Origin: Gemmatimonadota bacterium
Lineage (GTDB): Bacteria > Gemmatimonadota > Gemmatimonadetes > Palauibacterales > KS3-K002
Assembly (NCBI GenBank): GCA_039588075.1
Contig: JBDHAL010000011.1
Span: forward strand, 1 to 58,214
Direction of reading: 5' to 3'
DNA length: 58,214 nt
The position numbers and the translations under genes are program-made. Below, piece after piece: positions 3,631 through 55,635 of the stretch (position 1 is its first letter; each line of letters opens with the position of its first letter). The notes beneath the pieces are model-generated. The model made no database searches, had not been told where the DNA came from, and saw nothing but the letters and a program-made list of their open reading frames with translations.

Positions 3631-3828
3631 GGACTGATTCGACGGGACTGATTCGACATCGGACAGCGGTCAGCCGGGGCTCGACGGCGGGCGGAGGAGG
3701 CAACTACCGATGCGCGACAGCCGACGCTCACCGTCCGACGGAGGTTGGACGTAGAACGTAGGGCGTCGACTGTCGACAGCTGCCTCTTTCGGCGGCCGTC
3801 GAGCGACGGCTGACCGCTGTCCGATGTG
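3631..3828. repeat. family-A nested-inverted-repeat intergenic element, copy 1
   Basis: Arms GACTGATTCGACATCGGACAGCGGTCAGCC and GGCTGACCGCTGTCCGATGTGG. The terminal 13 nt GGGACTGATTCGAC is directly duplicated at the left end. It lies between convergent stops at 3626 and 3860. Confidence 0.8.
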
Positions 3829-3859
3829 GCCTCGGCCCGGTCGAATGTTGAATGTTGAA

Positions 3860-5068
3860 TCAGATGGAGTCGATTCCGCGCTTCCCTCGCGCGAGCAGCT
3901 CGCTGACCTCGCGCACTTCCGGCCGTTTCGCTTTCTGGGCGACCTGAGCGGGTGTGAGGCCGCTACGGTTGGCCAGCTCCGGGGCCGCACCGCGCCCGAG
4001 TAAGAGCTCGACGGTTTTCGCTCTACCGGCCCGCACGGCGTCGAACAGAGGAGACTCGCCTCTGCCATCCACGGCATTGATATCGGCGCCGTAGTCCAGT
4101 AAGACCTCGGTGATCTCGGTGAACCCGGCCTGCGAAGCGCGGTGCAGCGGCGTCTTGCCCTTGAAGTCACGAACGTTAACGTCGGCGCCCAGCCTGAGGA
4201 GGGGAACGACGCGGCTTGGGTCGTCAGCCGCGTTGTGGTTGCCGCGGCTGGCGTTGACGAGAGCGGGGTACCCCATCCAGTTGGGAGCGTCGATGTCGAA
4301 CTCGTAACCGTATTGCCTGACGAGCCCACTCAACCTCGAGTCGGCGGCCCACTCGCTGATCCCGGAATCGGCGGGGTCGGCACCGTGGTCGAGCAGGATC
4401 TCGACGATGTCGGTCCGATCGCGCCAGACGGCCCAGCGAAGCAACATACCGCCCGGCCGCTTCACATCGGCGCCCCTGGATATCAGCAGCTCAACCGTCG
4501 TTTCCCAGGCGCCGGCGACAGCGTAGTGCAATGGAGTGGACGAGTACGTCTTCGCAGCTCTGGGCGCCGCGCCGAAATCACGGTTTAGAAGGCGTGGGTT
4601 GCCGTCGAGGAAAGACGCAACCAAGTCGTCACGGCCCAGGTAAGCGGCGTTATGTACGTCGAGGTTGGCACCGCCCTCACGAAGGGCAGTCGCGATCTCC
4701 TCGCGGCCCTTTAGAAGAGCCAGGCAATAAGGGCTGACATCGACGAAGTGCTCCTTGAAGTAGCAGCCGGCGGCGTGAACGTCGGCGCCCTCCTCGATCA
4801 GAAACTCGACCAGCTCGGCCCTTCCCTTGTTCACCGCCTCCCAGAGCATGGTCCGGCCGTGGGGCCCTCGGGCCGTCACCCACCCGGGATCGGACTTCAC
4901 GTAGGCGCGCACCGCTTCCAGGTCGCCCCGTGCGGCGGCGGGAAGAACGATCTTGGAGAGATCGCTGTGGTTTCCGGTCAGTTCTCGCTCCAGCATCATA
5001 TACAATACTTGCAACGAAGGCCTCAACTCGCCAGTGTGGGCATAATGAGAACTCGAGCGGTGGGACAA
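3860..5068 (-). CDS. ankyrin-repeat protein
   Basis: Multiple ANK-like units (GRTMLWEAVNKGRAELVEFLIEEGADV; TPLHYAVAGAWETTVELLISRGADV; GKTPLHRASQAGFTEITEVLLDYGADINAVDGRGESPLFDAVRAGRAKTVELLLGRGA). The start is uncertain. An alternative Met at 4999 would leave a promoter gap before the divergent gene. Confidence 0.8.
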   Translation of the reverse strand: MSHRSSSHYAHTGELRPSLQVLYMMLERELTGNHSDLSKIVLPAAARGDLEAVRAYVKSDPGWVTARGPHGRTMLWEAVNKGRAELVEFLIEEGADVHAAGCYFKEHFVDVSPYCLALLKGREEIATALREGGANLDVHNAAYLGRDDLVASFLDGNPRLLNRDFGAAPRAAKTYSSTPLHYAVAGAWETTVELLISRGADVKRPGGMLLRWAVWRDRTDIVEILLDHGADPADSGISEWAADSRLSGLVRQYGYEFDIDAPNWMGYPALVNASRGNHNAADDPSRVVPLLRLGADVNVRDFKGKTPLHRASQAGFTEITEVLLDYGADINAVDGRGESPLFDAVRAGRAKTVELLLGRGAAPELANRSGLTPAQVAQKAKRPEVREVSELLARGKRGIDSI

Positions 5069-5071
5069 ACG

Positions 5072-7528
5072 ATGGACGCTATCCAGAAGAACCTGCGTTA
5101 CGCGGGCCGCCGTCTCTTGCGGAGCCCCGGCTTCACCCTGACCGCGATCCTCTCGCTGGCGCTGGGCGTCGGGGCGAACACCGCGATCTTCAGCATCGTC
5201 AACGCCGTGCTTCTGAGGGACCTCCCGCTGGAGAACCCTGAAGAGCTGGTCGAGATCTACATCGATTTTCCGATCTTCGCCTTCACTCCCTTCTCGTACC
5301 CCGAGTACGAGGACTTCAGGGACTGGACCTCCGACGCTTTCGCCGGCGTCTCGGGCTCGGGCCTCGCCTTTCTCCAGATCGATCTCCCGGACGGGGTCGA
5401 GACGGTCATGGGCGAGGTCGTGACGGGCAATTACTTCCCGTTGCTGGGTGTGCGGGCTGAGGTCGGTCGAACGATTCTACCCGAAGACAACGTGTCGCCC
5501 GGCGGTCACCCCGTCGTGATGCTGAGCCACGGCTACTGGCAGCGGGCCTACGGCGGCGACCCCGGCGCCGTCGGTCAGGAGGTTCGGCTTTACGGTCGCC
5601 CCTACACGATCGTCGGCGTGGTGCCCGAGGCGTATACGGGAAGCCTGAGGGGCCTGGCGCCGGACCTGTACGCGCCGGTCATGATGGCCGACGAGCTGCA
5701 GTCGTTCGCCGGCAGCCGGCTCGAGCAACGTGGCAATCGCTGGTTCTTCGTGAAGGGCCGGCTGGCGCCCAGCGTTTCGATGGAAGCCGCCAGCGTCGTA
5801 TCGTCGCGCGTGGCTTCTCGGTTCAAGGAGGAGTACCCCGAGCAGTGGCAGGGTGACGACCGCATGGTTCTCGTCCCGACCGAGGACGTGATACTGAACC
5901 CGGCGTTCGATCGCTTCATAGGCCCGGCCACCGGACTGGTGATGGGCGTGGTCGGCCTGGTCCTGCTGATCGCCTGCGCCAACCTGGCGAGCTTTCTGCT
6001 GGCCCGGGCGATGGACCGCAGGAAAGAGATCGCGGTTCGCCTGGCGCTGGGCGCGACGCGCCGCACGCTGATCGGCCAGCTGCTCACCGAGACCGTGCTG
6101 CTCTCCATGCTGGGAGGGGCGGTGGGCGTGATCCTGGCCATCGGGATGCTGAAGCTGCTGGTCAGCGCCGACCTGCCGCTGCCATTCCCCATCACGCTCG
6201 ACCTTTCGCTGGACGCGAACGTGCTGGCCTTCAGCCTGGCGATCTCCGCCGCGGCGGGAATCCTGTTCGGGCTGGCGCCGGCGATCCAGGGCACCAACCC
6301 GGCGGTGGCGCCGACGCTGAGGGACGAGAGCGCCGGAGCGGGCGGCCGGCCCGGGCGGCTGTCCCTGCGGAACGCCCTGGTGGCGGGCCAGGTCGCCCTT
6401 TCGCTGGTCTTGCTGGTCTGCGCCGGCCTCTTCATGCGCAGCCTCCAGGCGACGCGGGCGGTGGAGCCGGGCTTCGGCAGTGACCCGACGGCGATTCTCA
6501 CCTTGGGCCTGCGCGAGGAGCGTTACTCGGAGGAAGAGGGGCGAATCTTCACGCGCACGTTATTGGAGCGGGCGCAGGCGCTCCCGGGCGTGACGGCGGC
6601 CGGCATGATCGACAACATCCACCTGAACACGCTGAGCACGCAGACCACGGGAATAAACGTGGATGGCGTGGAGCCGCCCCCGGAGCGAGACGAGCACTCG
6701 GTGGACTACGCGCGCGTCGAGCCCGGTTTCTTCGACGCCGCCGGCGTGCCGATCCTGCGCGGCCGCAATTTCTCTGAGGGCGATCTGGCCGACGGTCCAC
6801 CCGTCGCGATCATCAGCGAGGCGATGGCGCAACGGTTCTGGCCTGATGCGGACCCGGTCGGCCGTATCATTCACGGGCGCGACAACCTGGATCTTAGAGT
6901 CGTAGGTGTAGCCCGCGATGCCAAGGTACGATCGCTGGGCGAGCCCCCGCGCCCGTTCATCTATCGCCCCTACAGCCAGAGCTACTCCTCGTTCATGACC
7001 GTGATCGCACGCACTTCGGTCGACGCGGACCGCACGGCCCTCGACCTCCTGTCGCTGGTCCGCGAACTGGACCGCGAGGTGATCGTGCTCGTCAGCACGA
7101 CCATGGAGAGACACCTGGCCATCATGCTGCTGCCGGCTCGCCTGGGCGCTACCGTGATCACCGCGTTCGCCATTCTCGCCCTCAGCCTGGCGAGCATCGG
7201 GCTGTACGGGCTCGTGAGCTACGCCGTCGCCCGGCGGTCACGCGAGGTGGGAATCCGTATGTCCCTCGGCGCCGACGGCGGCATGGTCGTTCGGATGCTC
7301 ATGGCCAGCGGCATGAAGCCCGTCATCGCGGGCGGCCTCGTCGGCCTGGTCCTCGCCGTTCTGCTCACGCGAGGGATGGCCGGGTTGCTGTTCGGCATCG
7401 GCTCCCTGGATCTCGCCACGTTCGTCATCGTGCCGCTCGCCCTCGCCGTTGTGGCGCTGCTGGCTACGTACATACCGGCCCGGCGCGTGAGCCGGGTTAA
7501 TCCGGTATCTGCTCTGCGGGCGGAGTAG
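5072..7528 (+). CDS. ADOP-family (MacB/FtsX-like duplicated orphan) ABC permease
   Basis: An in-frame ATG at 5072 gives the N-terminus MDAIQKNLRYAGRRLLRSPGFTLTAILSLALGVGANTAIFSIVNAVLL, typical of the ADOP family. There are two FtsX-like 4-TM modules. The upstream ORF extension 4748-5071 is antisense to the ankyrin gene. Confidence 0.85.
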   Translation: MDAIQKNLRYAGRRLLRSPGFTLTAILSLALGVGANTAIFSIVNAVLLRDLPLENPEELVEIYIDFPIFAFTPFSYPEYEDFRDWTSDAFAGVSGSGLAFLQIDLPDGVETVMGEVVTGNYFPLLGVRAEVGRTILPEDNVSPGGHPVVMLSHGYWQRAYGGDPGAVGQEVRLYGRPYTIVGVVPEAYTGSLRGLAPDLYAPVMMADELQSFAGSRLEQRGNRWFFVKGRLAPSVSMEAASVVSSRVASRFKEEYPEQWQGDDRMVLVPTEDVILNPAFDRFIGPATGLVMGVVGLVLLIACANLASFLLARAMDRRKEIAVRLALGATRRTLIGQLLTETVLLSMLGGAVGVILAIGMLKLLVSADLPLPFPITLDLSLDANVLAFSLAISAAAGILFGLAPAIQGTNPAVAPTLRDESAGAGGRPGRLSLRNALVAGQVALSLVLLVCAGLFMRSLQATRAVEPGFGSDPTAILTLGLREERYSEEEGRIFTRTLLERAQALPGVTAAGMIDNIHLNTLSTQTTGINVDGVEPPPERDEHSVDYARVEPGFFDAAGVPILRGRNFSEGDLADGPPVAIISEAMAQRFWPDADPVGRIIHGRDNLDLRVVGVARDAKVRSLGEPPRPFIYRPYSQSYSSFMTVIARTSVDADRTALDLLSLVRELDREVIVLVSTTMERHLAIMLLPARLGATVITAFAILALSLASIGLYGLVSYAVARRSREVGIRMSLGADGGMVVRMLMASGMKPVIAGGLVGLVLAVLLTRGMAGLLFGIGSLDLATFVIVPLALAVVALLATYIPARRVSRVNPVSALRAE

Positions 7529-7553: not shown

Positions 7554-7756
7554 CTGATTCGACAGCCGACAGGGGACAGCCGATGGCCGACCCTTAAGTT
7601 TTGTTGGACTATCGACGCCCGACTCCCGGCTCAGGACGCTCGGTTAGGTGCCGCGGCAGCAGCGGCGAGCGTCGGAAGTCGAGAGTCGAGACGTCGAACG
7701 TCCAACAACACTTAGGAGTCGGCTGTGGGCTGTCCCCTGTCGGCTGTCGAATACAG
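7554..7756. repeat. diverged subfamily copy of the family-A inverted-repeat element
   Basis: Arms CTGATTCGACAGCCGACAGGGGACAGCC and GGCTGTCCCCTGTCGGCTGTCGAATACAG. Inner pair GTTTTGTTGGAC and GTCCAACAACAC. Shares the CTGATTCGAC terminus with family A. Confidence 0.7.
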
Positions 7757-7885: not shown

Positions 7886-10333
7886 ATGGGCCCCACCTGG
7901 CAGGACGTGCGCTATGGATTCCGTACGCTGCTCAAGCGTCCCGGATTCGCGCTGATCGCGGTACTGACCATCGCGCTGGGAATCGGCGCCAACACTTCCA
8001 TCTTCAGCATCGTCAACGGCGTGCTGCTCGAGCCACTGCCGCTCCACGAGCCGCAGGATCTCGTGACGCCGGACGTGATAAGCTCGCGCGGCTTCTCGAT
8101 CTCGCTGTCGATCCCCAACTTCAAGGACTGGCGTGAGCGCAGCCGTTCGTTCGAGTCGTTCGGGGCGAACATGTCGAATAACCTGACGCTCACCGGCATC
8201 GACCGCCCCGAGATGATACGCGCCCGCTTCGTGCTCGGTGACTATTTCGAGACGCTCGGCGTGCCGCCGTTCATGGGCCGGACGATAAGATCGGACGAGA
8301 CGTGGGCGGGAGCCGTGCCGATCGCCGTCGTGACGTACGGTTTTTGGGAACGACGCCTCGGCTCCGACCCCGACGCGCTGGGCCGCAGCATCACGCTGGC
8401 CGGCGAAGTCTACGAGATCGTCGGCATCATGCCCCCGGAGTTCCAGTTCCCGTCCGCCGACACCGAAGCCTTCCTTCCCATGGGCTATATCTCCGATCGA
8501 CTCTGTTGGGAGGTGCGCGGCTGCTCCCAGGGCACGTGGGCCATCGCCCGGCTCAAGGACGGCGTCAGCATCGAGACCGCCCAGGCCGACCTCGACCGGA
8601 TACACCGCGAGATCGAAGAAGAGGAAGGCCAGGAGGTTGCGCGGCCCGAGCTGGGCTCGCTGATGGACGCCTACGTCGGCGACATTCGCACGCCGATCCT
8701 GATCCTGATGGGCGCGGTCGGCTTCGTCCTGCTGATCGCCTGCGCCAACGTGGCCAGCCTGCTGCTGTCGCGCGGCGAGAGCCGCAGGCGCGAGATCGCC
8801 GTCCGCACCGCACTCGGCGCCGGGCGCGGCCGGGTGATCCGCCAGCTTCTCACCGAAAGCGTCATACTCGGGCTCGCCGGTGGTGGCCTCGGCGTCGGCC
8901 TGGCCTACGTCGGCACGCGACTGCTCGTTCCAGCGATCTCCGACAACATACCGACGATCATGATCGGTAGGATCGGGCTCGACGTACCGGTTCTGCTGTT
9001 CACGTTCGCCGTCTCGGTGGGAGCGGGCCTGCTGTTCGGGATCGCGCCGGCGCTGCGCGCTTCCGTCCAAGAGCTGGTGGGCGAGCTGAAGGAAGGCGGC
9101 CGTGGTGGAACCGGGAGCAAGGCGCGGCAGCGCCTGCGGTCGAGTCTCGTGGCAGCCGAGGTGGCGCTGTCGCTCGTGCTGCTCATCGGCGCCGGGCTGA
9201 TGATCCAGAGCCTGCGCAAATTGCAGAACGTCGACAAGGGGTTCGTCGCCGACAACATATTCACTGCCCGCGTCTCGCTGCCCCGCATACGGTACGACGG
9301 CAAGGAGCCCGTCTGGCGGTTCTACAACGAGTTCCTCGAACGCGTTCAGTCGTTGCCCGGCGTCAAGACCGCATCGCTCACCCAGATCGTGCCGCTGCAG
9401 GGCAACAGCTGGGAGCAGAGCATCATTCCGGAAGGCGTCGCACCCGATCCGGAGAACTTCCAGTCGGTCCTTTATTACATGGTCTCGCTCGACCACTTCG
9501 CGACCTTCGGCATCCCGCTGCTGCGGGGGCGCTTGTTCACGGAACAAGACCGCGACGGCGGCGAGCTGATCTGTGTGATCGACGAAACGATGGCGGAGAA
9601 GTTCTGGCCCGGCGAAGACCCGATCGGCAAGCGCGTCTCGTTCGAAGACACGGAGGAGTCCACCCGCGAGAACCCGATCCGGGTCTTCAGAACCGTGGTC
9701 GGCGTGACGCGGAATGTCCGTCACTACGAACTGGAAAACCCGTCGCGCATCACGGTCTACGTGCCGATGAACCAGAGCGAGCGCTCGTGGACCACGGCCA
9801 TGCACATCGTGGCCAAGACCCAGGGCGACCCGCTGGCCCTTACCGAGACGGTCCGGCGCGAATTGAGCACCCTCGACGCCGAGGTGCCGCTTTACTCTGT
9901 AGAGACCATGGAGGGCTACGTTGGCGAAGCGCTCTCCAATACCCGGGTCGTGGGCAGCCTGCTCACCATCTTCAGCGCCATCGCGCTCACTCTATCCGCC
10001 ATCGGTATCTTCGGCGTCATGTCGCTTTCCGTGGTGCAGCGGCTGCGCGAGATCGGTATCCGGATGGCGCTGGGCGCCCGGGGCGGAGACGTGGTGCGCA
10101 TGGTCACCCGGCAGGGCCTGATCGTCACGCTCACCGGCGTGGCCATCGGCCTCTTCGCCGCCTTCGCGCTCACTCGGCTGATGACGAGCCTGCTTTACCA
10201 GGTGGATCCGGTGGAGCCGGTTACCTATGCCGGCTTCGCGGGCTTCCTCATCGCGGTCTCCTTGCTGGCGGCGTACTTGCCGGCGCGACGCGCGACCCGG
10301 GTGGATCCGGCGATCGTGCTCAGAGAGGAGTAA
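7886..10333 (+). CDS. ADOP-family (MacB/FtsX-like duplicated orphan) ABC permease, second copy
   Basis: N-terminus MGPTWQDVRYGFRTLLKRPGFALIAVLTIALGIGANTSIFSIVNGVLL. Same architecture as the gene at 5072-7528. Confidence 0.9.
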   Translation: MGPTWQDVRYGFRTLLKRPGFALIAVLTIALGIGANTSIFSIVNGVLLEPLPLHEPQDLVTPDVISSRGFSISLSIPNFKDWRERSRSFESFGANMSNNLTLTGIDRPEMIRARFVLGDYFETLGVPPFMGRTIRSDETWAGAVPIAVVTYGFWERRLGSDPDALGRSITLAGEVYEIVGIMPPEFQFPSADTEAFLPMGYISDRLCWEVRGCSQGTWAIARLKDGVSIETAQADLDRIHREIEEEEGQEVARPELGSLMDAYVGDIRTPILILMGAVGFVLLIACANVASLLLSRGESRRREIAVRTALGAGRGRVIRQLLTESVILGLAGGGLGVGLAYVGTRLLVPAISDNIPTIMIGRIGLDVPVLLFTFAVSVGAGLLFGIAPALRASVQELVGELKEGGRGGTGSKARQRLRSSLVAAEVALSLVLLIGAGLMIQSLRKLQNVDKGFVADNIFTARVSLPRIRYDGKEPVWRFYNEFLERVQSLPGVKTASLTQIVPLQGNSWEQSIIPEGVAPDPENFQSVLYYMVSLDHFATFGIPLLRGRLFTEQDRDGGELICVIDETMAEKFWPGEDPIGKRVSFEDTEESTRENPIRVFRTVVGVTRNVRHYELENPSRITVYVPMNQSERSWTTAMHIVAKTQGDPLALTETVRRELSTLDAEVPLYSVETMEGYVGEALSNTRVVGSLLTIFSAIALTLSAIGIFGVMSLSVVQRLREIGIRMALGARGGDVVRMVTRQGLIVTLTGVAIGLFAAFALTRLMTSLLYQVDPVEPVTYAGFAGFLIAVSLLAAYLPARRATRVDPAIVLREE

Positions 10334-10335
10334 CT

Positions 10336-10400
10336 CGGTAACCGGTAACCGGTGACCGGTAATCGGTAACTGCGTGCCTGGCAGCTACCGATTACCGGTC
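10336..10400. repeat. family-B heptamer array (GGTNAYC)n with inverted partner (hairpin)
   Basis: CGGTAACCGGTAACCGGTGACCGGTAATCGGTAAC, then a 14-nt spacer, then CTACCGATTACCGGTC. Starts 3 nt after the ADOP stop. Confidence 0.75.
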
Positions 10401-10438
10401 GCCGTCTTGCGCCCCGCAGGCCACCGCATTACAAAAAT

Positions 10439-10858: not shown

Positions 10859-10884
10859 GAACGCGCGTCGAAGCACTTTCGGAG

Positions 10885-11169
10885 CGACATCGGACAGCGG
10901 TCAGCCTTGGGTGACTGACTCGACATCGGACAGCGGTCAGCCTTGGGTGACTGACTCGACATCGGACAGCGGTCAGCCGTCGCTCGATTGTCGAGTTGGA
11001 CTCTTCGCTCGACGTAGGACGGTCGATTTTCGACTTTCAACTCTGCTCGCCACCTCGTCCGGCCTCCCCATCTAATCCCCAACGTTGTACGTCGAACCTC
11101 GGCCGTCGAGCGTCGAGCGAAGAGTCCAACTCGACCCGTCGAGCGACGGCTGACCGCTGTCCGATGTCG
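10885..11169. repeat. family-A element, copy 2, with triplicated left arm
   Basis: Three tandem starts of CGACATCGGACAGCGGTCAGCC at 10885, 10921 and 10957 (36-nt period). These are followed by the inner repeat, a centre, and the right arm ending CCGATGTCG at 11169. Confidence 0.85.
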
Positions 11170-11179
11170 GTACGGGTCG

Positions 11180-42195: not shown

Positions 42196-42200
42196 GGCCC

Positions 42201-43399: not shown

Positions 43400-43413
43400 C
43401 TTATAATATCAAA

Positions 43414-46380: not shown

Positions 46381-46799
46381 CTCCCCACGTATACTATCGT
46401 TCTCACAACTACCGCTCTCTGCCTGCCCAGGCCGCCGGGATAGAGGACCGTCACCGCGAGCTGCACCGCGTCGGCCACGCTAGGTTCCGGCTCGACCGTC
46501 ACTTCACGAACGAACTTGCCGTTGTTGTCTTCCAGACCCCGTTCGTTCACCTGGACCGGTGCTTCACTATCGAGCGAACTCCGCTCCCGCGTCTTTAGCT
46601 GCTCCATGTAGGCCATGGCGATCGATGATGCTGTCGAGCGCGTACGGGCATCGGTTTCCACCGAGGTCATGAAGAGAGAAGAGCTGGACATCACGACGAC
46701 CCCCGCCGATAGCAGCACGATGGCCACCAGCACGGATACCATCCCGTATCCGTCTTCCGACGCCAGGGGGGTCCGCCACGCTCGCCTCACTTCTCCCAA
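46377..46799 (-). CDS. PilV/GspI-like minor pilin, cassette A (non-canonical, Ser at +5)
   Basis: ...EDGYGMVSVLVAIVLLSAGVVVMSSS. 140 aa. It has a 4-nt overlap with the downstream pilW-like gene and a 13-nt overlap with the upstream gene. Confidence 0.6.
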   Translation of the reverse strand: MGEVRRAWRTPLASEDGYGMVSVLVAIVLLSAGVVVMSSSSLFMTSVETDARTRSTASSIAMAYMEQLKTRERSSLDSEAPVQVNERGLEDNNGKFVREVTVEPEPSVADAVQLAVTVLYPGGLGRQRAVVVRTIVYVGS

Positions 46800-47428: not shown

Positions 47429-47632
47429 TCTGACCGACCCGGAGGTACAGCTGCCCGCCCGGTAGGGTGCCGGCCGACTGACTCCGGAAGAGTGAAAAGC
47501 GCTTTATGTAGGCGGGAACTGCGCTTCAGGACGAAGGATCGGGCCGGTCCGCCAGTGGATCCGGCCAAGGTCCGTGGCTATGAAAGGCAAGAGCCGGGCC
47601 TAAGTGGTAGGGTTGCTGGACGACGTTCGGCG

Positions 47633-47854
47633 CGACATCGGACAGCGGTCAGCCGTCGCTCCACGGTCGAGTTGGACTCTTCGCTCGACGTACGACGGTC
47701 GACTTGGGACTCTCTACTCTCCTCACGGCCATCGCCGTTTGCCCGATCGGCCTCATCCTCCCCTCAGCCCCGTACATCGAACATCGGCCGTCGAGCGTCG
47801 AGCGAAGAGTCCAACTCGAACCGTCGAGCGACGGCTGACCGCTGTCCGATGTCG
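47633..47854. repeat. family-A element, copy 5 (between the two pilin cassettes)
   Basis: CGACATCGGACAGCGGTCAGCCGTCGCTC... to ...TCGAGCGACGGCTGACCGCTGTCCGATGTCG, with both inner repeats. Confidence 0.85.
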
Positions 47855-47886
47855 TAAAAAACAACATCGCTGCGCACCATGCCGGG

Positions 47887-49812
47887 CTAAAGAGCTTCTC
47901 GCATAGCGGTCCGGATGACGTTGCCGACACTAGGCGTGCCGGGTGGCAGCAGCTCGGGGTTTCTGAAGTCGGTATCGAACTGCCAATCGCGCTGCGGCGG
48001 ATCGTAATAGGTGCCGTTCCAGGTGCCGGTAGTCTGTTGGCTGGTGAAGGGGCTGATGAGGGCGCCGGTGTAGTGGAGAATGTGCCTGGCGCCACCTCCG
48101 CCGCTGACGATCCAGCTCTCGAGGAAGCGCGGGAAGTTCTCGATGCCGCCGCCGTAGAAGTTGCTGTAACCGCCACCGCAGGGAGGGATCTCATGATCGC
48201 ACGGAGTAGGCCAGTGGCCGGCGAGGATGCCGGCGTTCACCGTCGTCTCCTGGGCCTCCTTGTTGTTCCAGGCGTTGGTGAAGGCGACGTACTCGTCGCA
48301 GCTTCCATCGTCCTCGTTGGCATCGTCACACCGCTCGAACACGCTCGTGGTGCCCGGGCGGTTTTGAGGATCCTGCCACCGGTTCGACAGTATGTCGATC
48401 CCATCGCCGGCGAGCGCGGCCGGTTTCTTGTCAATGTTGTTGTAATCGCCCCAGGCGTACATCGGCCACTCGGTGACGATGGTCATTCGGTTTGGCAACA
48501 GCGCGCCAGCGGCGACGCGCACGGCGGGATCGACCTGGCCATCGAGTATCTGGGCGCGCGTCTCGGGCGTGAACCCTCCGATGCCCGCCGGCGCGGTGAT
48601 CTCGACATAGATGATCTCCATCGCGCGATCCACGTCGCCGGCAACCCAAGAGTCGATTTCGTCGATATTGATCTGCACGATGTCTTTCAGCTCATCCTCG
48701 CGCCCATCGTAGAAGGCAGCCCACTGCCATTGGAACATCCTGCAGAGTTGGGTCTCGTTGGGGACCACGGCGCCACCGGAACGAACCGCCCTGACAGTGG
48801 GGATCAGCACGTTCCCGGCCACATCTTTGGAAATGCTGCAGGCGCCGCTCCAGTTCTTCATGCTGGTGAAGTCCACGGTCACGTACATGTCGGCGTTCCA
48901 CGCGAATTTCACCGACTTCTCCGCCTCGCCGTCATCGACGTCACGCGGCCGGATGAGCTCGGAAGCGGGCACGCCGTCCGGCAACGGCAACTCCAGAGAA
49001 TCCACGTTGAACGCATCGGTCTCCAAGCGACAATCGAACTTGGCGCAGCTCTCCGTCTTGAATGCTTCCGCATCGTCTATCGTGCGACTGTCGAAGTCGA
49101 GCTTGACCTCGTTCCCATCGGCGTCGTTGATGTAGACTCCATCCTGGATGTCGTGGTTGTCCTTCCGGTCGTGGAAGACCTTGTTGGGCGTCGTTATCGG
49201 CTCGCGGTACCACGCGTTGGGCAGGTTATCGCCGGGCCCCGCGCCCGAGCTCAGGTAGATATTGCCGTTCGAGTGGACGCGGCCCTTGAACTCGAGAGGC
49301 GGACCGTTGGTCGCCTCGAGGTCCTCGTTGTAGAACACGCCGAACTGGAAGATGGGGATGGCCTGGGCCTTGGCTCTGAGCACAACGCCAGCGACCGTAC
49401 CGTTCTCGTCCGCGGCCAGCGAGTAGATCTCGACGTTCTGCGTCAGAGCATAAAGACCTTCGTAAGGACCGTCGGTGATGTTCTCGACAACCGCGGTGCC
49501 CTGCCTGGCGACCGTGAAGCTGTCGAAGCTGAACCCATCGATATCGGGGGGCGTGATCGCGGCGAGCTCCTCGTCACCCAGAAACGCGTCCTGCAGCGCC
49601 AGCTTGAGCTGCGAGAGCGCGGATTCGCCGCCCGCCTCGGCGGCGTAAAAGACACGGGCTTCCTGGTAGTCGAGGCTCGACGAGCGAAGTGAAGTCATAG
49701 CGGCTCGCACGGCGCCGGCGATGACCACGCCCATGATGGCCAACACGATGAGCGTTGCAACCAGCGCCAGGCCGCGCCTGTCGCTCCGTCCTGTGGCTGA
49801 GATATCAAACAT
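47887..49812 (-). CDS. large PilX/GspK-like pilus tip-associated protein, cassette B (641 aa from preferred start)
   Basis: The preferred start is ATG at 49812 with a strong SD (GGAAGGAGGAG). MFDISATGRSDRRGLALVATLIVLAIMGVVIAGAV...FYAAEAGGESAL. The track ORF extends to 49938 and would overlap the upstream gene. Confidence 0.7.
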   Translation of the reverse strand: MFDISATGRSDRRGLALVATLIVLAIMGVVIAGAVRAAMTSLRSSSLDYQEARVFYAAEAGGESALSQLKLALQDAFLGDEELAAITPPDIDGFSFDSFTVARQGTAVVENITDGPYEGLYALTQNVEIYSLAADENGTVAGVVLRAKAQAIPIFQFGVFYNEDLEATNGPPLEFKGRVHSNGNIYLSSGAGPGDNLPNAWYREPITTPNKVFHDRKDNHDIQDGVYINDADGNEVKLDFDSRTIDDAEAFKTESCAKFDCRLETDAFNVDSLELPLPDGVPASELIRPRDVDDGEAEKSVKFAWNADMYVTVDFTSMKNWSGACSISKDVAGNVLIPTVRAVRSGGAVVPNETQLCRMFQWQWAAFYDGREDELKDIVQINIDEIDSWVAGDVDRAMEIIYVEITAPAGIGGFTPETRAQILDGQVDPAVRVAAGALLPNRMTIVTEWPMYAWGDYNNIDKKPAALAGDGIDILSNRWQDPQNRPGTTSVFERCDDANEDDGSCDEYVAFTNAWNNKEAQETTVNAGILAGHWPTPCDHEIPPCGGGYSNFYGGGIENFPRFLESWIVSGGGGARHILHYTGALISPFTSQQTTGTWNGTYYDPPQRDWQFDTDFRNPELLPPGTPSVGNVIRTAMREAL

Positions 49813-49889
49813 CTGTCCAGCTCCTCCTTCCCGCGGGCAACATGGGGCCCGATGTCGCAGCGGGCTCTCTAGTCCGCACCAGAGTCGAT

Positions 49890-50858
49890 TCAGATTCTGA
49901 ACTTCTCGTAACGCAGGTTCCGAGGTGAAATCGTCCACTCGTACTGCCTGCGAAGTATTTCACCTTCGTTGACCCGTGGATCCGCGGCGTCGGCCTTGAC
50001 TGTGACTGCAATCTTGACGGCCACGATGTCGTCGAAGTCGTTGGAATCATCCAGATCGTTCGAGTTGGCCGTTTCCAGTTCGTCGCCATCGGCGAACACC
50101 AGCTTGACATCGAACCGCTCCACGCCATAGGCGAGAATGTGGCCCTCCGGCGAGCCGTCGAGCTTCAACCTCCCCGCCCGCATCAGCTGCTCCTGATCGT
50201 CCAGGTAGTAGGCGACCAGCTCCAGCTTCTGTATGATCGTACCGAAGCGGTCGAGGAGCATGCCGTCCTCGAGGCCGGCGGGTTGCCTCACTATGGTATC
50301 CGCCGCCGTGAAGCTGATTTGCACCGACGTGTCGGTAACCTCGTCGAGCTCGGTGATGAGGATCAGGTGCCGGGTGCCCGGAATCTGCAGCCGCGCCAGA
50401 TCGCCCACCCGGAGATCGAGCGGCTCGACATCGTCCTTCAGCACTTCGACGCAGCGGGCTCCACAGGTGCCGCCGGGCGGGAGGGGGTTATCGATGCCGA
50501 ACGGAGGTACGATGACGTGGGCCGGTGCGACGTCCGGCTGGTAGGGCACGTGCAGGATGACCACGGTGTCGCCGAACGTTCCGGGCCAAACGGCTACCGT
50601 GCCGAACGTCGTCGTACTGGTGATCTCGATGCCGGCCCGCTGCACATCGTGGCGAAGCGATGAGCCGATGTACCGCGCGTTGCGGCTCAAGCTCTGACGG
50701 ATCTCGCTTCCGGCCAGCGTGCGCATCTCCCGGATGACGTAAGCGATCGCCGCGCTCAGGACGAGGACGCCCATGGCGAGGGCGATGATCAGCTCCACGA
50801 AGGTGAAGCCGCGAAGCCTGCGCCGCCGAGCCGGCGCTTCGTGTCTCATAGCTCGCAT
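49890..50858 (-). CDS. PilW/GspJ-like minor pilin, cassette B
   Basis: RLRGFTFVELIIALAMGVLVLSAAIAYV. 322 aa. Roughly 60 percent identical by eye to the cassette A copy. Confidence 0.8.
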   Translation of the reverse strand: MRAMRHEAPARRRRLRGFTFVELIIALAMGVLVLSAAIAYVIREMRTLAGSEIRQSLSRNARYIGSSLRHDVQRAGIEITSTTTFGTVAVWPGTFGDTVVILHVPYQPDVAPAHVIVPPFGIDNPLPPGGTCGARCVEVLKDDVEPLDLRVGDLARLQIPGTRHLILITELDEVTDTSVQISFTAADTIVRQPAGLEDGMLLDRFGTIIQKLELVAYYLDDQEQLMRAGRLKLDGSPEGHILAYGVERFDVKLVFADGDELETANSNDLDDSNDFDDIVAVKIAVTVKADAADPRVNEGEILRRQYEWTISPRNLRYEKFRI

Positions 50859-51302
50859 CTACTCATTCCCCACGTAAATGACCGTCACCAACTCCAGGGT
50901 CCTGCGGCGACCGAAGCCCGACGGATACTGAACCTCGACCGTCGCCCTGACCGCATCGGGCGTGTCCGGCTCTTCGACGACCGTCAGGCTGCGCAGGAAA
51001 CGGCCGCCGGTGGCCTCGGTACCCGTCTCGTTCACGGCAACCTCGGCTTCGGTCGCGATGGAAGTCGGGAGCCGGGTCTTGACTTGCTCCATGTAAGCGA
51101 GGGCGATGGCGCTGGCCCGGGTACGTTCGGCGGCATCGGTCTGAAGCGAGACCATGAAGGCGCTGGAGCTGGACAGCGCGACCACGCCTATCGCGATCAA
51201 CACTATGGCCACGAGCACCGAGACGATGCCGAAGCCGGCCTGCGATCGTTCAATCGCCGCGGTACGCATCAGTTGATCCACGTTCCGCCGCGGTAGCGCC
51301 AA
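50859..51302 (-). CDS. PilV/GspI-like minor pilin, cassette B (non-canonical, Ser at +5)
   Basis: ...SQAGFGIVSVLVAIVLIAIGVVALSSS. An alternative start is the ATG at 51269, which overlaps the upstream stop by 1 nt (TGATG). Confidence 0.6.
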   Translation of the reverse strand: MALPRRNVDQLMRTAAIERSQAGFGIVSVLVAIVLIAIGVVALSSSSAFMVSLQTDAAERTRASAIALAYMEQVKTRLPTSIATEAEVAVNETGTEATGGRFLRSLTVVEEPDTPDAVRATVEVQYPSGFGRRRTLELVTVIYVGNE

Positions 51303-51916
51303 AGACGCAACGCGCTGGCTCCCGAGATCGTTACGGCGGCCACCGCGGACGGGTCATCTTGATGAACCAGATATATAACGCCGCCGTACCCGGCAGGGTC
51401 CACCAGTCCACGAGCGCCGAACTCCACCCAGGTACTCTCCCCGTTGTAGCCCAGGGCTATCGACTCGGCGGCCGAAATCCCCAGCGGTCCGCTGGACGCG
51501 CCGCCGGCGCCGAACTCGATCTTTCTGGGAAGCTCGACACCGGGGATGCCGGCGAGGGACCCGCGCACGACCAACCCTCCCTCGCGCACTTCTTCGACGG
51601 TCTCGGACACGGTGCCGAGTCGCTGACCCGACACATCCATGAAGGCGGTATAGAAATTCCCGGCATCGTAGAAGCGGACCCGGACCTGGCGCTTGGCGGC
51701 GAGCGCACGCGTGCGAGCCTGCTCGAGGTCACGGACGAGCGAACGGGCGGCGCGATCGACCTGTTGATTGGGAGTCGAACGGATGGCACGCGGCAAGGCG
51801 ATCGTGGCGACGACCACCAGGATGATCATGACCACGACGATTTCGATAAGCGTGAAGCCCCACCTGTTTCGCAACATAGACCTCATCCGCCCCTTGGCCG
51901 GGTAGGCGTTTGTCAA
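51269..51916 (-). CDS. FimT/GspH-like minor pilin, cassette B
   Basis: NRWGFTLIEIVVVMIILVVVATIALPR. The segment LVRDLEQARTRALAAKRQVRVRF parallels cassette A. The track start is TTG, and an internal Met is possible. Confidence 0.75.
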   Translation of the reverse strand: MTNAYPAKGRMRSMLRNRWGFTLIEIVVVMIILVVVATIALPRAIRSTPNQQVDRAARSLVRDLEQARTRALAAKRQVRVRFYDAGNFYTAFMDVSGQRLGTVSETVEEVREGGLVVRGSLAGIPGVELPRKIEFGAGGASSGPLGISAAESIALGYNGESTWVEFGARGLVDPAGYGGVIYLVHQDDPSAVAAVTISGASALRLWRYRGGTWIN

Positions 51917-52347
51917 TCCAACGAAGCCGCCCTCGCGGCTCTCCGGTCAACCTGACCGCTCGGGGGGTGAGCACCCAGCCGGCAACAATTGTAGCCTTGC
52001 GCCCGGCATTTCAAGCGCAGAAGAAGGAAGCGCCGCGGGACACAGCTGGGGGAGACCCAGACAAGATGGGCGACCCGGACGGGGCGGTCAATGCTGAGTC
52101 CGGGTGGAGTATTGGCGGATGCAAACGAGCTTGCAGAAAGCCAGACCGCCGCGCCTCGAGTCACTCGCGCGCGATCGCCACAACGTGTTTCAATGCAACG
52201 CTTTGGGTTTACGGCCCAGCGCGGCACCGCCTTTGCAAATACATCCGTTTAACGAAGCGCGCCTCGGGCGCGTCTCATGATTGGGCGCGAGAGCCCCATT
52301 CAGCAGCACCTCCCACCCCAAGTGTCCCGCCAGGAGTATGATCAACC

Positions 52348-53211
52348 GTGCCGTTCATAGAGTATCAGAGCCGATTGTACCCGCTCAAGGAGGGTGAGAA
52401 CCGCCTCGGGGCCGACCCGAACGCCAACGTGCGGATCCCCGACCTGCAGGCCGACATCGAACTGGCGATCAGCGTCGAGATGCTCGGTTCGTTCGCCTGG
52501 GCCAAGGGCGATAGCCGCGAGATCGCGATCAACGGGAGCCCGCTCAACAAGGAGCCGATCCCGCTATTTCACGGCGATCGCCTCTCGTTGAACGGCTCGA
52601 CGCTGGTCTTCATCGATGACGACGGAGAACCCACCGTTCATATGCAACGACCGGCGCCGGCCGCCGTGGCCAGCACCGTGGCGGAATCACCGCAGGGAAC
52701 AGCGGCCGTGGAGCCGCACTTGCTGTCGCGGATGACACCACCGACGCAAAAGCGAAGAGTCGTTGCCGTGCTGCGCCGGGCCGATAACAATCAAGCGTAC
52801 ATCGTGGGCCGGACCGGGTTCCGGATCGGACGAGAGAAGCGCTGTGACTTGATCATTCCGGACAGGTCGGTCTCGCGGCTGCACGCCGAGATCGCGTTCA
52901 GCGGCGGCCAATTCTTGTTGCGCTGCCTCGGCCGCACTTCGACCAAGGTCAACGGGCGCGCGCTGGATGAACCGTACAAACTTCGTGTCGGGGACGTGAT
53001 TCAGATAGGGAGCTACGAATTCACGTTTCTACGCAGACCGGCCACCGCGCAGGAGATCGTTCAGGCAAGCGAGGTCACGCCGATCCGCAGCGCCGTCGCG
53101 GAGGCGCCGACCGTCGCGATCGGTGGCGCTACCCGCGGCCGGTTGGTCTTCTGGTTCCTGTTTACGGTGCTTGCCGGACTCGTCGGCGTCATACTCATGG
53201 GCCGCGCCTAG
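52348..53211 (+). CDS. FHA-domain protein with degenerate N-terminal FHA-like domain, canonical second FHA domain and C-terminal TM anchor
   Basis: The second domain is canonical: YIVGRTGFRIGREKRCDLIIPDRSVSRLHAEIAFSGGQFLLRCLGRTSTKVNGRAL..LRVGDVIQIGSYEFTF. The first domain (LKEGENRLGADPNANVRIPD...INGSPL...LFHGDRLSLNGSTLVF) lacks the SR-H signature. The C-terminal helix is LVFWFLFTVLAGLVGVILMG. Confidence 0.8.
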   Translation: MPFIEYQSRLYPLKEGENRLGADPNANVRIPDLQADIELAISVEMLGSFAWAKGDSREIAINGSPLNKEPIPLFHGDRLSLNGSTLVFIDDDGEPTVHMQRPAPAAVASTVAESPQGTAAVEPHLLSRMTPPTQKRRVVAVLRRADNNQAYIVGRTGFRIGREKRCDLIIPDRSVSRLHAEIAFSGGQFLLRCLGRTSTKVNGRALDEPYKLRVGDVIQIGSYEFTFLRRPATAQEIVQASEVTPIRSAVAEAPTVAIGGATRGRLVFWFLFTVLAGLVGVILMGRA

Positions 53212-53218
53212 GGGGAGA

Positions 53219-53430
53219 CTGATTCGACATCGGACAGCGGTCAGCCGTCGCTCGATTGTCGAGTTGGACTCTTCGCTCGACGCCCGACCGTCGATGCTCG
53301 ACGTACAGCGCCGAAGGGATGGGGAGGTCCTATCCAAGTGGGGAGAGTCGCAAGTCGAGCGACGCACGTCGAGCGAAGAGTCCAACTCGGACGTCGAGCG
53401 ACGGCTGACCGCTGTCCGATGTCGAATCAG
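53219..53430. repeat. family-A element, copy 6 (best-preserved, 37-bp perfect terminal inverted repeat)
   Basis: CTGATTCGACATCGGACAGCGGTCAGCCGTCGCTCGA to TCGAGCGACGGCTGACCGCTGTCCGATGTCGAATCAG. It fills the gap between convergent stops at 53211 and 53427 almost exactly. Confidence 0.9.
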
Positions 53431-53693
53431 TTCCCCTCGCCTACGATCTCCTCTACCGCCGCCTTCGTGCTATCCGCCGCCGACCGCAGGTTGTCCCCGG
53501 CGCGCCGGCCGCGATCGATCACTTCCTCGCCCGCTTCGCGCAGCGACTCGACATCGGCCACGATCTCCTCGTACGCCTGCTTGAGATCCCGGTATTGCTG
53601 GTCGCGAACGTAGTAGCCCAGCGCGATACCGGCCACGAAGATAACGAGTCGCGGCATTAGCCACCTGGCAAAACTTCTTCTTCTCTCCGACAT
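53427..53693 (-). CDS. small membrane-anchored coiled-coil protein (YtxH-like?)
   Basis: 88 aa. An N-terminal TM (LVIFVAGIALGYYV) is followed by a charged helical region. The stop codon lies within the terminal repeat of the family-A element. Confidence 0.5.
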   Translation of the reverse strand: MSERRRSFARWLMPRLVIFVAGIALGYYVRDQQYRDLKQAYEEIVADVESLREAGEEVIDRGRRAGDNLRSAADSTKAAVEEIVGEGN

Positions 53694-53713
53694 AGCTCAA
53701 CCCCTGCTATTCA

Positions 53714-55321
53714 TCAGTCCACCTGCTCGTCCGGCTGGCGGGCTTCCTCGTCGACGTCGACCCGCTCTTCATGCCACAACCGATCCCAGCCAGCTTCCTC
53801 GCCTTCAACCAGCCGGGAGTCGACCTCTTGCTTGAGCTCGCGCCAGACCTCTTCGCTCAGCAGGCCGCGGCGCAAGGCTTCGTCCAGCGCGGTACGCTCA
53901 GCGGCGAACACCTGCGCGCTAACCCGCGCTAGCTGGCGGCCGGCCACGGCTCTGTGGTCCTCGGTCAGCCCGGCCAGCGCCGCCGAACCCTCGCCGAGCG
54001 CGCCCTCGAAGTACTCCCTCAGCCTTCCGTACAAAAGCTCCGACATTTCGCCCCGGCTGTAAAGCTCGTTCAGCTCGACCAGGGCCGCCCGGGCGGCGAT
54101 CACCTGGCCCTGGGCCTTCTCGAACTCGCCCTGCTCGTCCGACCGGCTAACCAGGCCCAGGGAGCGGAGCAGCGGCTTGATCGTCAGTCCCTGGAGGATC
54201 AGAGACAAAAACACGGCGCCCAGCGTGACCGACTGCAGTCGCGTGACCTGCGGGACACTCGAAGACAGGCCAAGGGCGAGCGCCACCGGGATGCTACCGC
54301 GCACGCCGCCCCAGTTGGCGACGTGTAGCCAGCTCGTCGGCATGTAGCGATTTGACCGCAGCTTGTATATCCCGAGAATCCCGTACACCGCGATCGCCCG
54401 AGCAACGAGCATGACGGCGAACACGAGAGCAATTTGCCCGCCGTAGCTCAGCAGGTGGCCGCGCTCGAGGGTCAACCCGATGAGCAGGAAGAGCAGCCCG
54501 TTGAGGAGAAACGTCCCCACCTCCCAGAAGTGATTGAGGCTGAGACGCGTGCTGGGGCTCATCGAGAAGACGCGGCCGTAGTTGCCGATGATCAGGCCGG
54601 CGACTACGGTGGCGATGACGCCGGACACTTCCAGCCGTTCTGCCAACAAGTAGGAGCCGTACGCGAGTACGACGGAGAGCCCCACCTCGATCAGGTTGTC
54701 ATCGATGACGCTGTACAGCCGGTGCGTCAGATATCCCAGCGCCGCGCCTACCAGCGCGCCGCCGGCGACGACCTTCACGAACTCGATCGATGCGCTCACG
54801 ACCGTGACCGGCTCCCCGTGCAGCACCTCGAGGACGATCAGGTAGAGGACCACGGCGATCCCGTCATTGAAGACCGACTCGCCCTCGACGATCGTGCGGA
54901 GGCCGCGCGCTACTCCGTACTCCTTGAAGAGAGACAGTACCGACACGGGGTCGGTGGGGCTGAGCATGACGCCGAGCAGTGCGGCCAGTGGAACGGGCAG
55001 GCCGAGAAACCTGTTGAACGCCAGCGTCAAGAGCGTGACCGAGACCAGCGTGCCGACCAGCGCCAGCAGCCCGACCGGCGTGGCGTACTTTCGCAGCACC
55101 TCGAGGTCCATGTCGATGGCGCCCTCGAAGAGCAGCGGCGGCAGAAACAGAAACAGCCACAGCGTGGGAGCCACCGGCGGGGCGGCGACATCGGGTAGCA
55201 ATCCCACGCCGACGCCGGCGATGACCAGCGCGATCGTGTAGGGCAAGCGCACATATTTGACGACGATTGCGACGATGATGGCGAGAAGCAGCAGTTCTAC
55301 GATCAGGATTGTCTGGCTCAT
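53714..55321 (-). CDS. Na+(K+)/H+ antiporter, CPA1 (NhaP-type) family
   Basis: 535 aa with about 12 TM segments. Blocks such as LFLPPLLFEGA, SPTDPVSV and ESVFNDGIAVVLY, plus a C-terminal cytoplasmic helical domain, are typical of NhaP/YjcE-like exchangers. Confidence 0.85.
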   Translation of the reverse strand: MSQTILIVELLLLAIIVAIVVKYVRLPYTIALVIAGVGVGLLPDVAAPPVAPTLWLFLFLPPLLFEGAIDMDLEVLRKYATPVGLLALVGTLVSVTLLTLAFNRFLGLPVPLAALLGVMLSPTDPVSVLSLFKEYGVARGLRTIVEGESVFNDGIAVVLYLIVLEVLHGEPVTVVSASIEFVKVVAGGALVGAALGYLTHRLYSVIDDNLIEVGLSVVLAYGSYLLAERLEVSGVIATVVAGLIIGNYGRVFSMSPSTRLSLNHFWEVGTFLLNGLLFLLIGLTLERGHLLSYGGQIALVFAVMLVARAIAVYGILGIYKLRSNRYMPTSWLHVANWGGVRGSIPVALALGLSSSVPQVTRLQSVTLGAVFLSLILQGLTIKPLLRSLGLVSRSDEQGEFEKAQGQVIAARAALVELNELYSRGEMSELLYGRLREYFEGALGEGSAALAGLTEDHRAVAGRQLARVSAQVFAAERTALDEALRRGLLSEEVWRELKQEVDSRLVEGEEAGWDRLWHEERVDVDEEARQPDEQVD

Positions 55322-55386
55322 TTGCCTAAGCTAGGGCTTTCGACGCTGAACGTCGACGTTCGACAGCTAACGCCGAATGTTGATGG

Positions 55387-55635
55387 GACATCGGACAGCG
55401 GTCAGCCGTCGCTCGATTGTCGAGTTGGACTCTTCGCTCGGCGGTCGACGTACGACGTTCGAGTTTCGACGCTCGTGATCGGAACCGCCAGATCGATCAG
55501 CCGATCCTGCAAATCATGGGTGTCGCGCCACCTCGTCGATTCGCCCAATCTCCCCTCCTCGCTGTACGTCGAAGATCGGCCGTCGAGCGACGAGCGAAGA
55601 GTCCAACTCGGCCGTCGAGCGACGGCTGACCGCTG
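55387..55635. repeat. family-A element, copy 7 (right terminus degenerate)
   Basis: GACATCGGACAGCGGTCAGCCGTCGCTCGATTGTCGAGTTGGACTCTTCGCTCG... to ...CGAGCGAAGAGTCCAACTCGGCCGTCGAGCGACGGCTGACCGCTG. It lies in the divergent region between the antiporter and the ABC genes. Confidence 0.8.

Follow-up and report, generated by a model that had tools for sequence, protein, structure and literature searches.

The DNA analysed, referred to throughout as the window, is the 58,214-nt stretch at positions 1 to 58,214 of contig JBDHAL010000011.1 (Gemmatimonadota bacterium, assembly GCA_039588075.1). Eight of its sites belong to one family of palindromic repeats, henceforth referred to as family A, whose elements are 200–290 nt long and contain no conserved open reading frame (ORF). 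Gene contexts were obtained from a GC3-based gene map and Pfam scans and agree with a first-pass annotation made from the sequence alone: five sites lie between convergent stop codons, one between two minor-pilin cassettes, one between two MacB/FtsX permease genes (labelled "ADOP" there) and one in a divergent spacer. The taxon implied by the ADOP label, Acidobacteria, was wrong; the best named homologues of the Na+/H+ exchanger (74%) and of the DUF819 protein (up to 88%) are from Gemmatimonadota metagenome-assembled genomes (MAGs), and the host is accordingly an uncultured member of that phylum. Copies in the window are designated by their start (c3631, for example), L124 and L005 denote Joint Genome Institute (JGI) contig DNA of the same genome, and L121–L123 and L125–L129 denote DNA of relatives of the host. 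Together with ~7 kb beyond the end of the window, ~65 kb of the genome was covered.

BLASTN, repeat grouping and an nhmmer arm profile agreed that the eight sites form a single family, six of them being full copies, one a half copy and one diverged (Table 1). With 53219–53430 as the query against the window, BLASTN matched all of these sites and no others (E 1e-9 to 1e-47), the matches spanning 3648–3827, 7554–7752, 10951–11169, 38191–38255, 43206–43399, 47633–47854 and 55381–55635; a solo terminus at 10885–10906 was also matched. The arm profile recovered 15 arms and two solo termini (10882–10944). The sequence at 10885–10956, initially counted as part of a palindromic copy, in fact consists of two extra tandem 36-nt units outside the palindrome, each made up of the 22-nt family terminus CGACATCGGACAGCGGTCAGCC and a 14-nt flank TTGGGTGACTGACT, directly upstream of the full copy c10951. 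Summed over the window, family A measures ~1.64 kb (2.8%), in line with the earlier estimate of ~1.6 kb or near 3 percent. Two further full copies are located just past the end of the window, at 4531–4767 and 5740–6010 of L124 (the next 7 kb of the JGI contig), for a density of 10 sites in ~65 kb, or ~1 copy per 6.5 kb.

Pairwise arm identity among the copies is 77–93% with a mean of 86%, and their gene contexts differ. A second assembly (JGI sample 3300041086, contig Ga0452216_001755), 99.7–99.9% identical to the window over the overlap, carries the same copies. Assembly duplication, raised at the outset as a possible source of the repeats, was ruled out on these grounds.

Table 1 Family A copies and GGTAACC-type hairpins in the window.
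Feature	Position	Strand	Description
c3631	3631–3862	+	Full copy, subfamily A2 (same 22-nt terminus, other inner arm); arms 3637–3739 / 3744–3846
c7554	7554–7756	+	Diverged copy between two MacB/FtsX permease genes
Solo units	10885–10956	+	Two tandem 36-nt units; period 36, 2.6 copies, 100%
c10951	10957–11169	+	Full copy, alpha->beta, between convergent stops; outer stem 31/31
Half copy	38182–38258	-	Alpha arm only
c43205	43204–43403	-	Chimeric full copy between convergent stops
c47633	47630–47856	+	Full copy between two minor-pilin cassettes, 3' of the stop of the second PilX-like gene
c53219	53213–53436	-	Full copy between FHA gene and 88-aa gene
c55387	55381–55650	+	Full copy with longest centre, in divergent Na+/H+ exchanger / ABC spacer
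GGTAACC-type hairpins	10330–10410, 27036–27145, 27410–27490, 27644–27726, 28497–28569, 38122–38169		

Each family A element is one long imperfect palindrome, and each of its arms is a run of 13–16 degenerate heptads. The 22-nt terminus is followed by an alpha arm of ~13 heptads, a C-rich centre of highly variable length (C-rich on the alpha->beta strand), a beta arm and the inverted terminus. Written in register, the arm reads (CTGATTC) GACATCG GACAGCG GTCAGCC GTCGCTC GATTGTC GAGTTGG ACTCTTC GCTCGAC GTACGAC GGTCGAT TTTCGAC TCTCGAC. The elements had been described as nested, with separate inner and outer inverted repeats, a description that missed the heptad periodicity; since the arm reads as one continuous heptad register, the "outer" and "inner" inverted repeats are parts of a single run. 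Mean self-identity falls from 47% at lag 7 to 40% at lag 14 and 35% at lag 21, with other lags at ~19–32%. The 7-nt periodicity is strong in every copy, including the diverged c7554 and a related element of another species; per-copy lag-7 identity is 43–51% compared to 26% in dinucleotide shuffles (z = 6.0–7.6). A lag-7 scan of the whole window detected family A, a second family of GGTAACC heptamers and only three short marginal stretches.

The two arms of an element are not equivalent. The alpha arm ends in ...GTACGAC GGTCGAT TTTCGAC TCTCGAC and the beta arm in ...GCTCGAC GGCCGAT GCTCGAC GTACAGC, and these differences, together with the C-rich centre, are common to seven copies, from which it follows that the element was copied as a whole polar unit. 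Fold-back synthesis was considered as a source of the arms and ruled out, the alpha/beta differences being inherited by all copies. Both arms of c3631 have the A2 inner sequence; in c43205 only the left arm has it, the right being of the alpha type (A1), and c43205 is therefore a chimera. The tandem-repeat search with TRF found only short runs of 2–5 units inside copies, with period-7 runs in most of them. Within c3631 a 14-nt unit is perfectly duplicated at 3630–3657 and GAATGTT is repeated 2.6 times at 3843–3860; these tandems and the short period-7 runs show heptad slippage after insertion. The outermost heptads vary by copy, and several copies extend the palindrome outward with different heptads. 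At c55387, heptad arrays run outward to about 55335–55690.

The long rod predicted for these sequences was recovered on folding. Copy c53219 folds as one rod at -160.6 kcal/mol (z = -17.2 against 200 shuffles), with 38 consecutive pairs in an outer stem correctly reported before as complementary over 37/37 nt. The other full copies also fold to rods, of -105 to -182 kcal/mol, a full-copy rod measuring ~100 bp and the perfect outer stems 31–38 nt. Covariation was assessed on an alignment of ten elements with an RNAalifold consensus of 65 pairs, in which 90.9% of alignment cells are paired. Changes on both sides were observed in 27 of the 65 pairs, compared to 11.6 ± 2.4 in shuffles (0/500 reached 27) and to 6–15 pairs in controls with the partner slid by 1–3 columns. 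One compensated example is GACAGCGGTCAGCC/GGCTGACCGCTGTC, which is GACAGGGGACAGCC/GGCTGTCCCCTGTC in c7554. The terminus of c7554 reads CTGATTC GACAGCC GACAGGG GACAGCC, and where its arms differ from the main family, both changes have a compensating change in the opposite arm. The first heptad is likewise altered on both arms in c43205, where it is GACAGCG, and in L124 5740–6010. The covariation fits a pairing constraint at the DNA or RNA level. Mismatches on the alpha->beta strand number 62 of G-U type and 35 of A-C type, counts that are not independent given the shared ancestry of the copies, and folding-energy differences between strands range from -14 to +7 kcal/mol without a consistent sign. 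Neither measure separates a DNA-level from an RNA-level constraint.

The history of the copies was approached through relatives. L121 (a 4.8-Mb MAG, CP070812.1), L122 and L123 show perfect synteny with the window genome around the Na+/H+ exchanger, and three occupied sites were compared with relatives at 74% identity. The spacer of the convergent FHA/88-aa gene pair is 215 nt in the window genome, 10 nt in L121 and 0 nt in L122; the ABC/exchanger spacer, site of c55387, is 357 nt compared to 80 and 72 nt, and the MscS-like/EamA spacer 367 nt compared to about 65 and about 118 nt. No heptamer hairpin was found in the L121 or L122 spacers at any of the three. At the FHA/88-aa site, c53219 occupies the whole spacer, from the FHA stop codon (53209–53211) to that of the 88-aa gene (53427–29), and the C-termini of the flanking proteins are conserved right up to the element. 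Judged from these filled and empty spacers, a minimum of three copies arose by de novo insertion into short spacers (0–120 nt). No match to family A was detected in L121–L123 or L125–L129, among them closer relatives with 87–88% identity on DUF819, and its absence from syntenic and closer relatives alike places the expansion in the host lineage after the split. A separate observation concerns c10951 (10859–11179), which sits where L125 (2211–2912) and L129 (11171–12729) hold one or two extra genes between DUF819 and a 126–139 aa gene. These encode a 229–235 aa protein (methyltransferase-like in L129) and, in L129, also a 242-aa protein; gene loss or rearrangement thus coincides with the element at this site.

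Copies are concentrated between convergent genes. Among spacers of at least 25 nt, 5 of 6 convergent ones are occupied, compared to 3 of ~21 tandem or divergent ones (Fisher p = 0.004), and two copies, c55387 and L124 4531–4767, lie in divergent promoter spacers. The right ends of c3631 and c53219 overlap the stop codon of the neighbouring gene: that of the ankyrin gene (3860–3862) falls inside the right terminal GAATCAG of c3631, and that of the 88-aa gene inside the terminal AATCAG of c53219. A TGA within the terminal CTGATTC/TGATCGA is found in c3631, in c53219 and at both ends of L124 5740–6010. "Portable" stop codons, or targeting to CTGA/TCAG palindromes, are not claimed, as the other copies lie 11–38 nt from stops. 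No copy is followed by a T-run, the flanks on the transcribed side being free of them, and family A therefore fails the defining feature of an intrinsic (Rho-independent) terminator. A terminator-pattern scan of 42000–56500 gave 9 sites, none of them on an element, compared to a shuffle expectation of 8.0.

Two copies are associated with the minor-pilin cassettes (43414–47428 and 47887–51916), tandem paralogues with GspH-like, PilW-like and PilX-like genes whose 3' ends are 75–82% identical. Each PilX-like gene is followed by a family A copy, the two copies being opposite in polarity; L121 has two such cassettes and L122 one. A putative sigma-70-like consensus match (10/12) at 43380–43407 (+), with its -35 box CTGACC in the right terminus of c43205 and its -10 box TATAAT in the flank, points into the 3' end of the PilX-like gene.

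Heptamer hairpins other than family A are present both in the window and in the relatives. The second family of the window (family B) comprises short hairpins of near-perfect GGTAACC/GGTGACC/GGTAATC arrays and their complements, situated after stop codons and among four tRNA genes (26939–27567), where arms of 77 nt, 90% complementary to each other, flank tRNA-Cys on both sides. One of these arrays adjoins the half copy. In each relative, the period-7 arrays are built mostly from a unit of its own. Three sites orthologous to family A copies carry other heptamer hairpins in relatives. The permease 3' end, occupied by c7554 in the window, has a GGTGGTA-type hairpin in L125 and a GGGGTAG-type hairpin in L129; the BNR/sortilin 3' end, occupied by c3631, has a GGTAGGG-type hairpin in L129 (20680–20730); and at the EamA/antiporter site, where the window genome has the copy at L124 5740–6010, L121 has its own 190-nt palindrome, TCGACAT TCGACAG CCGACAT ... 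(6165–6354), which has the terminus motif common to family A and c7554 (nhmmer E = 0.004). As hairpins occur at the same gene ends in relatives, 3'-end heptamer hairpins are a trait of the clade, among which only family A is complex, long and highly amplified. Considered by their units, some at sites orthologous to family A copies, the arrays of the relatives look like the outcome of a genome-wise homogenisation of the motif.

Heptamer hairpins at gene 3' ends in the relatives were located at 1059–1096 and 17439–17454 of L121, 4290–4325 of L122, 6063–6199 and 9448–9489 of L125, 4499–4530 of L128, and 4419–4442, 13199–13229 and 20711–20730 of L129, with units GGTAGCC, GGGGTAG and GGTGGTA/GGTGGTG. 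The window also contains a single-copy palindrome of ~150 nt at 204–354 (arms 204–241/317–354, 92% complementary, and 240–275/282–317, 81%), which begins where the first gene, a partial one, has its stop codon; the outer stem of the palindrome has CGAATGTTGA, also found in the outer heptads of c3631 and c55387. By coordinate mapping, a 46-kb JGI contig of the same population ends at ~27424, inside the tRNA/GGTAACC cluster, which suggests that such repeats break short-read assemblies.

As in the first-pass annotation, no transposase, RAYT or integrase was found: no ORF of the window has a Pfam domain of these types, nor a Y1/HUH domain. Its statement that target-site duplications are lacking was also borne out by the sharp-ended copies c10951, c43205 and c47633, whose flanks (TCGGAG/GTACGG, CTGAAGT/CTTATAA and TCGGCG/TAAAAA, respectively) contain no direct repeats. 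No conserved target motif was found at the ends of the copies in the alpha->beta orientation.

Family A is best explained, at roughly even probability, as a non-autonomous hairpin-forming element that is copied whole and mobilised in trans, most like the REPIN and terminal-inverted-repeat (TIR) repeat systems, because its ends are hairpins, it makes no duplication, its placement is extragenic, its bursts are lineage-specific and it inserted de novo into spacers of 0–120 nt. The family would have multiplied within one Gemmatimonadota lineage by whole-unit copying into intergenic spacers, with its heptad texture arising by slippage in a 7-nt register. The copying activity would be supplied by a gene elsewhere in the genome; since the ends are hairpins rather than sharp TIRs with a duplication, the likeliest candidate is an enzyme acting on folded single-stranded DNA, such as a HUH tyrosine transposase of the RAYT/TIRYT type. 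Copies would persist mainly at gene 3' ends, being presumably harmless there, where a transcribed 100-bp stem probably acts as a 3'-end barrier or RNase III substrate.

Several observations weigh against this explanation. No mobilising enzyme was seen in ~65 kb of the genome, and REP-like units with an unpaired GTAG/CGTC tag are absent. The two assemblies show no copy polymorphism, all copies in the overlap being common to both, and no two copies of the family are identical, so there is no sign of current activity. Fuzzy ends with differing outward heptads are usually not what a site-specific transposase leaves. Finally, given the other heptamer hairpins of relatives at three orthologous sites, some copies could be recombinational replacements of an older hairpin and not insertions.

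The main rival, tentative and clearly less probable than the transposition account, is that the copies serve the host as 3'-end hairpins, whether as bidirectional terminators, as insulators or as stabilisers of mRNA, and are kept by selection and homogenised by gene conversion or replacement, not by transposition. It would account for the occupancy of five of the six convergent spacers, but not for the copies in divergent promoter spacers (c55387 and L124 4531–4767). Arm covariation is expected of a selected stem; a stem of ~100 bp, however, far exceeds what termination needs, T-runs are absent after every copy and all sites from the terminator scan lie off the elements. The simpler GGTAACC hairpins after stops and between tRNA genes point to a host role, as do the different heptamer hairpins of relatives at the permease and BNR/sortilin 3' ends and the EamA/antiporter site, whereas the 0–10 nt FHA/88-aa spacer of relatives shows that no hairpin is needed there, and conversion requires a flanking homology that the three empty sites do not offer. 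The two explanations are not exclusive, in that a hairpin that is selfish will, when it lies at the end of a gene, affect the transcript of that gene as well.

A broader reading, which is doubtful on present evidence, treats heptad-register palindromes as a separate class of bacterial repeats that propagate themselves. A process in 7-nt register, for example slippage of the polymerase on hairpins or the action of a heptad-reading protein, would build inverted heptamer arrays at gene ends, and each genome would homogenise a motif of its own (GGTAACC in this genome; in relatives, GGTAGCC, GGGGTAG or GGTGGTA). From time to time a composite array that has diverged, as family A has, would gain whole-unit copying to new sites. 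If true, this would connect the excess of heptameric repeats in bacteria, noted long ago but unexplained, with the way in which REP- and MITE-like dispersed elements arise, MITE standing for miniature inverted-repeat transposable element.

A classical MITE, that is, a deletion derivative of an insertion sequence (IS) moved by cut-and-paste by the DDE transposase of that IS through its TIRs, is improbable. Family A is small and non-coding, with long TIRs and a conserved 22-nt terminus, but the inverted repeat spans nearly the whole element and not the ends alone, and the ends differ among copies. Insertion relative to the relatives and the solo termini at 10885–10956 would suit such an element, but the three sharp-ended copies have no target-site duplication, neither a transposase nor a parent IS with the same termini was found in ~65 kb, and plasmid records, a rich source of IS, show no similarity.

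Spread via an RNA intermediate, or by template switching into hairpins or heptamer arrays already present, is highly improbable. Elhai et al. reportedly proposed such a spread in 2008 for small dispersed repeats (SDRs) of Nostoc inside tandem heptamers. In family A the half copy adjoins a GGTAACC array (38122–38169) and the outer heptads vary by copy, as if grafted into local arrays, but relatives have no heptamer array at the three insertion sites and no reverse transcriptase was seen. The excess of G-U type mismatches on the alpha->beta strand would fit an RNA stage, but comes from copies of shared ancestry and is accompanied by no consistent strand asymmetry in folding energies. An assembly artefact or chance similarity has next to no probability: its only point is that the source is a metagenome assembly, whereas the copies differ by 7–23% in their arms, have unique flanks, recur in the second assembly of the same population (Ga0452216_001755) and match one another with BLAST E values reaching 1e-47.

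Three further observations concern genes of the window. The longest ORFs of the ankyrin-repeat gene, 3860–5068 (-), and of the first permease gene, 4748–7528 (+), overlap by 321 nt; as residue 130 is the first of the MacB domain, the start of the permease probably lies further downstream. A putative 749-aa ORF at 20005–22254 (-), with no Pfam family and lying in a stretch of unusually high AT skew (0.23), was missed by the GC3 filter. At ~33223 (ORFs 31476–33524 and 32908–34407) the window is without 73 nt found in JGI contig L005 (18974–19046), which frameshifts the molybdopterin/FeS subunit gene of an alternative complex III operon, present in L005 as one 1001-aa gene; the difference is either a strain variant or an assembly error.

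Because family A fills ~3% of the stretch and most convergent spacers, it will break assemblies made from short reads. It also adds to the intergenic DNA and probably shapes many transcripts at their 3' ends. The heptad texture, together with the simpler hairpins of relatives at the same sites, suggests how a complex dispersed element could have developed out of simple 7-nt arrays, and the 22-nt terminus provides a specific probe for the mobilising gene.

No named family had been recognised in the initial reading, and no match was obtained in Rfam, plasmid records, GTDB species genomes or JGI metagenome contigs. In Rfam only four tRNAs exceeded the gathering threshold, the best E-value-mode match on an element being EBER2 (18.5 bits against a threshold of 200), and plasmid records searched with blastn gave no match to family A. 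An exact 20-mer searched in GTDB (one genome per species) had four single matches in actinomycetes, which are attributed to chance since none had a second arm. A degenerate 20-mer with 18 specified bases had 115 single matches in JGI metagenome contigs, none of them an element by BLASTN, the source sample evidently lying outside that collection, and a 19-mer had two matches in IMG/VR, confined to the seed. The arm consensus, translated in every open frame and with the translations concatenated, gave nothing at E <= 1 in the protein database.

Dispersed palindromic repeats are well studied in Proteobacteria. ERIC, Correia/NEMIS, RUP and BOX are MITE-like repeats of 100–300 bp that are co-transcribed with genes, and Correia repeats have a TA duplication and an IHF site. 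Family A resembles them in its size range, its long imperfect palindrome and its intergenic location, and is likewise expected to form part of mRNAs and to be an RNase III substrate. It differs from them in having no TA duplication and in belonging to another phylum, and no sequence similarity was found through Rfam or plasmid records, the ERIC and Correia consensus sequences not having been aligned directly. Heptad periodicity is not known as a feature of ERIC, Correia/NEMIS, RUP or BOX. The SDRs of Nostoc punctiforme (Elhai et al., 2008) are reportedly 21–27 nt long and inserted into tandem heptamer arrays. Family A shares with these the association with heptamer arrays and hairpins and the lineage-restricted spread, but here the array-like palindrome is itself the repeat, of 200–290 nt.

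The likeness to REPIN, ERIC and Correia repeats drawn in the first-pass annotation stands in that family A is a structured, non-coding, intergenic palindromic family; membership is not demonstrated, there being no tagged REP unit, RAYT, TA duplication or sequence similarity. Neither a literature search nor a REP survey (PMC3733652), whose main text makes no mention of the phylum, yielded a description of dispersed palindromic repeats in Gemmatimonadota. A REP unit is an imperfect palindrome of 20–40 nt with an unpaired GTAG or CGTC tag, and a REPIN consists of two inverted units (PMC3733652). REPs are tied to RAYT genes, and TIR repeats to the RAYT-like TIRYT genes that they flank ("TIRtrons"); both show the same placement bias as family A (PMC3733652). 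Like REP/REPIN (BIME) and TIR-repeat families (PMC3116915, PMC3733652), family A is extragenic, high in copy number, species-specific in sequence and palindromic, with paired changes in its stems and no target-site duplication; it also lies mostly between convergent and unidirectional genes, and its inverted pairs can fold into larger structures. Unlike REPs, it has arms of ~90–110 nt made of 13–16 degenerate heptads instead of hairpins of 20–40 nt, its ends have no GTAG, CGTC occurs only within paired sequence (GCCGTCGCTCGACGGC), and no RAYT or TIRYT gene was seen in the ~65 kb around it.

Heptamers are reported to be the most frequent long simple repeats in many bacteria (Mrazek 2007, summarised in PMC4679880). 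Described cases are inverted GGGAATC pairs in Xanthomonas, GGGGA(C/T)T in Nostoc, TAACTGA in Beggiatoaceae and STRR heptamers in Calothrix (PMC4692102, PMC4679880); in Xanthomonas there are 70–75 cases per genome of two arrays in convergent orientation, which are potential stem-loops (PMC4692102). Family A shares the 7-nt unit and the mostly intergenic location with such heptameric simple sequence repeats and looks in part like the inverted arrays of Xanthomonas: its arrays are inverted too, but of degenerate heptads. The GGTAACC hairpins of family B have the Xanthomonas-type feature of an inverted single-unit array. The published cases are arrays of one unit, and the passages of PMC4692102 and PMC4679880 consulted describe no dispersal of a composite sequence, whereas in family A the heptads, by diverging, have become a fixed sequence of ~200 nt, and this sequence is dispersed as a single polar unit that is conserved. 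As family A lacks the unit size and tag of REPs, the target-site duplication of classical MITEs, the TA duplication of Correia elements and the T-run of intrinsic terminators, and is similar to no Rfam family or plasmid record, it is filed as a dispersed intergenic palindromic repeat that is lineage-specific and stands outside any named family.

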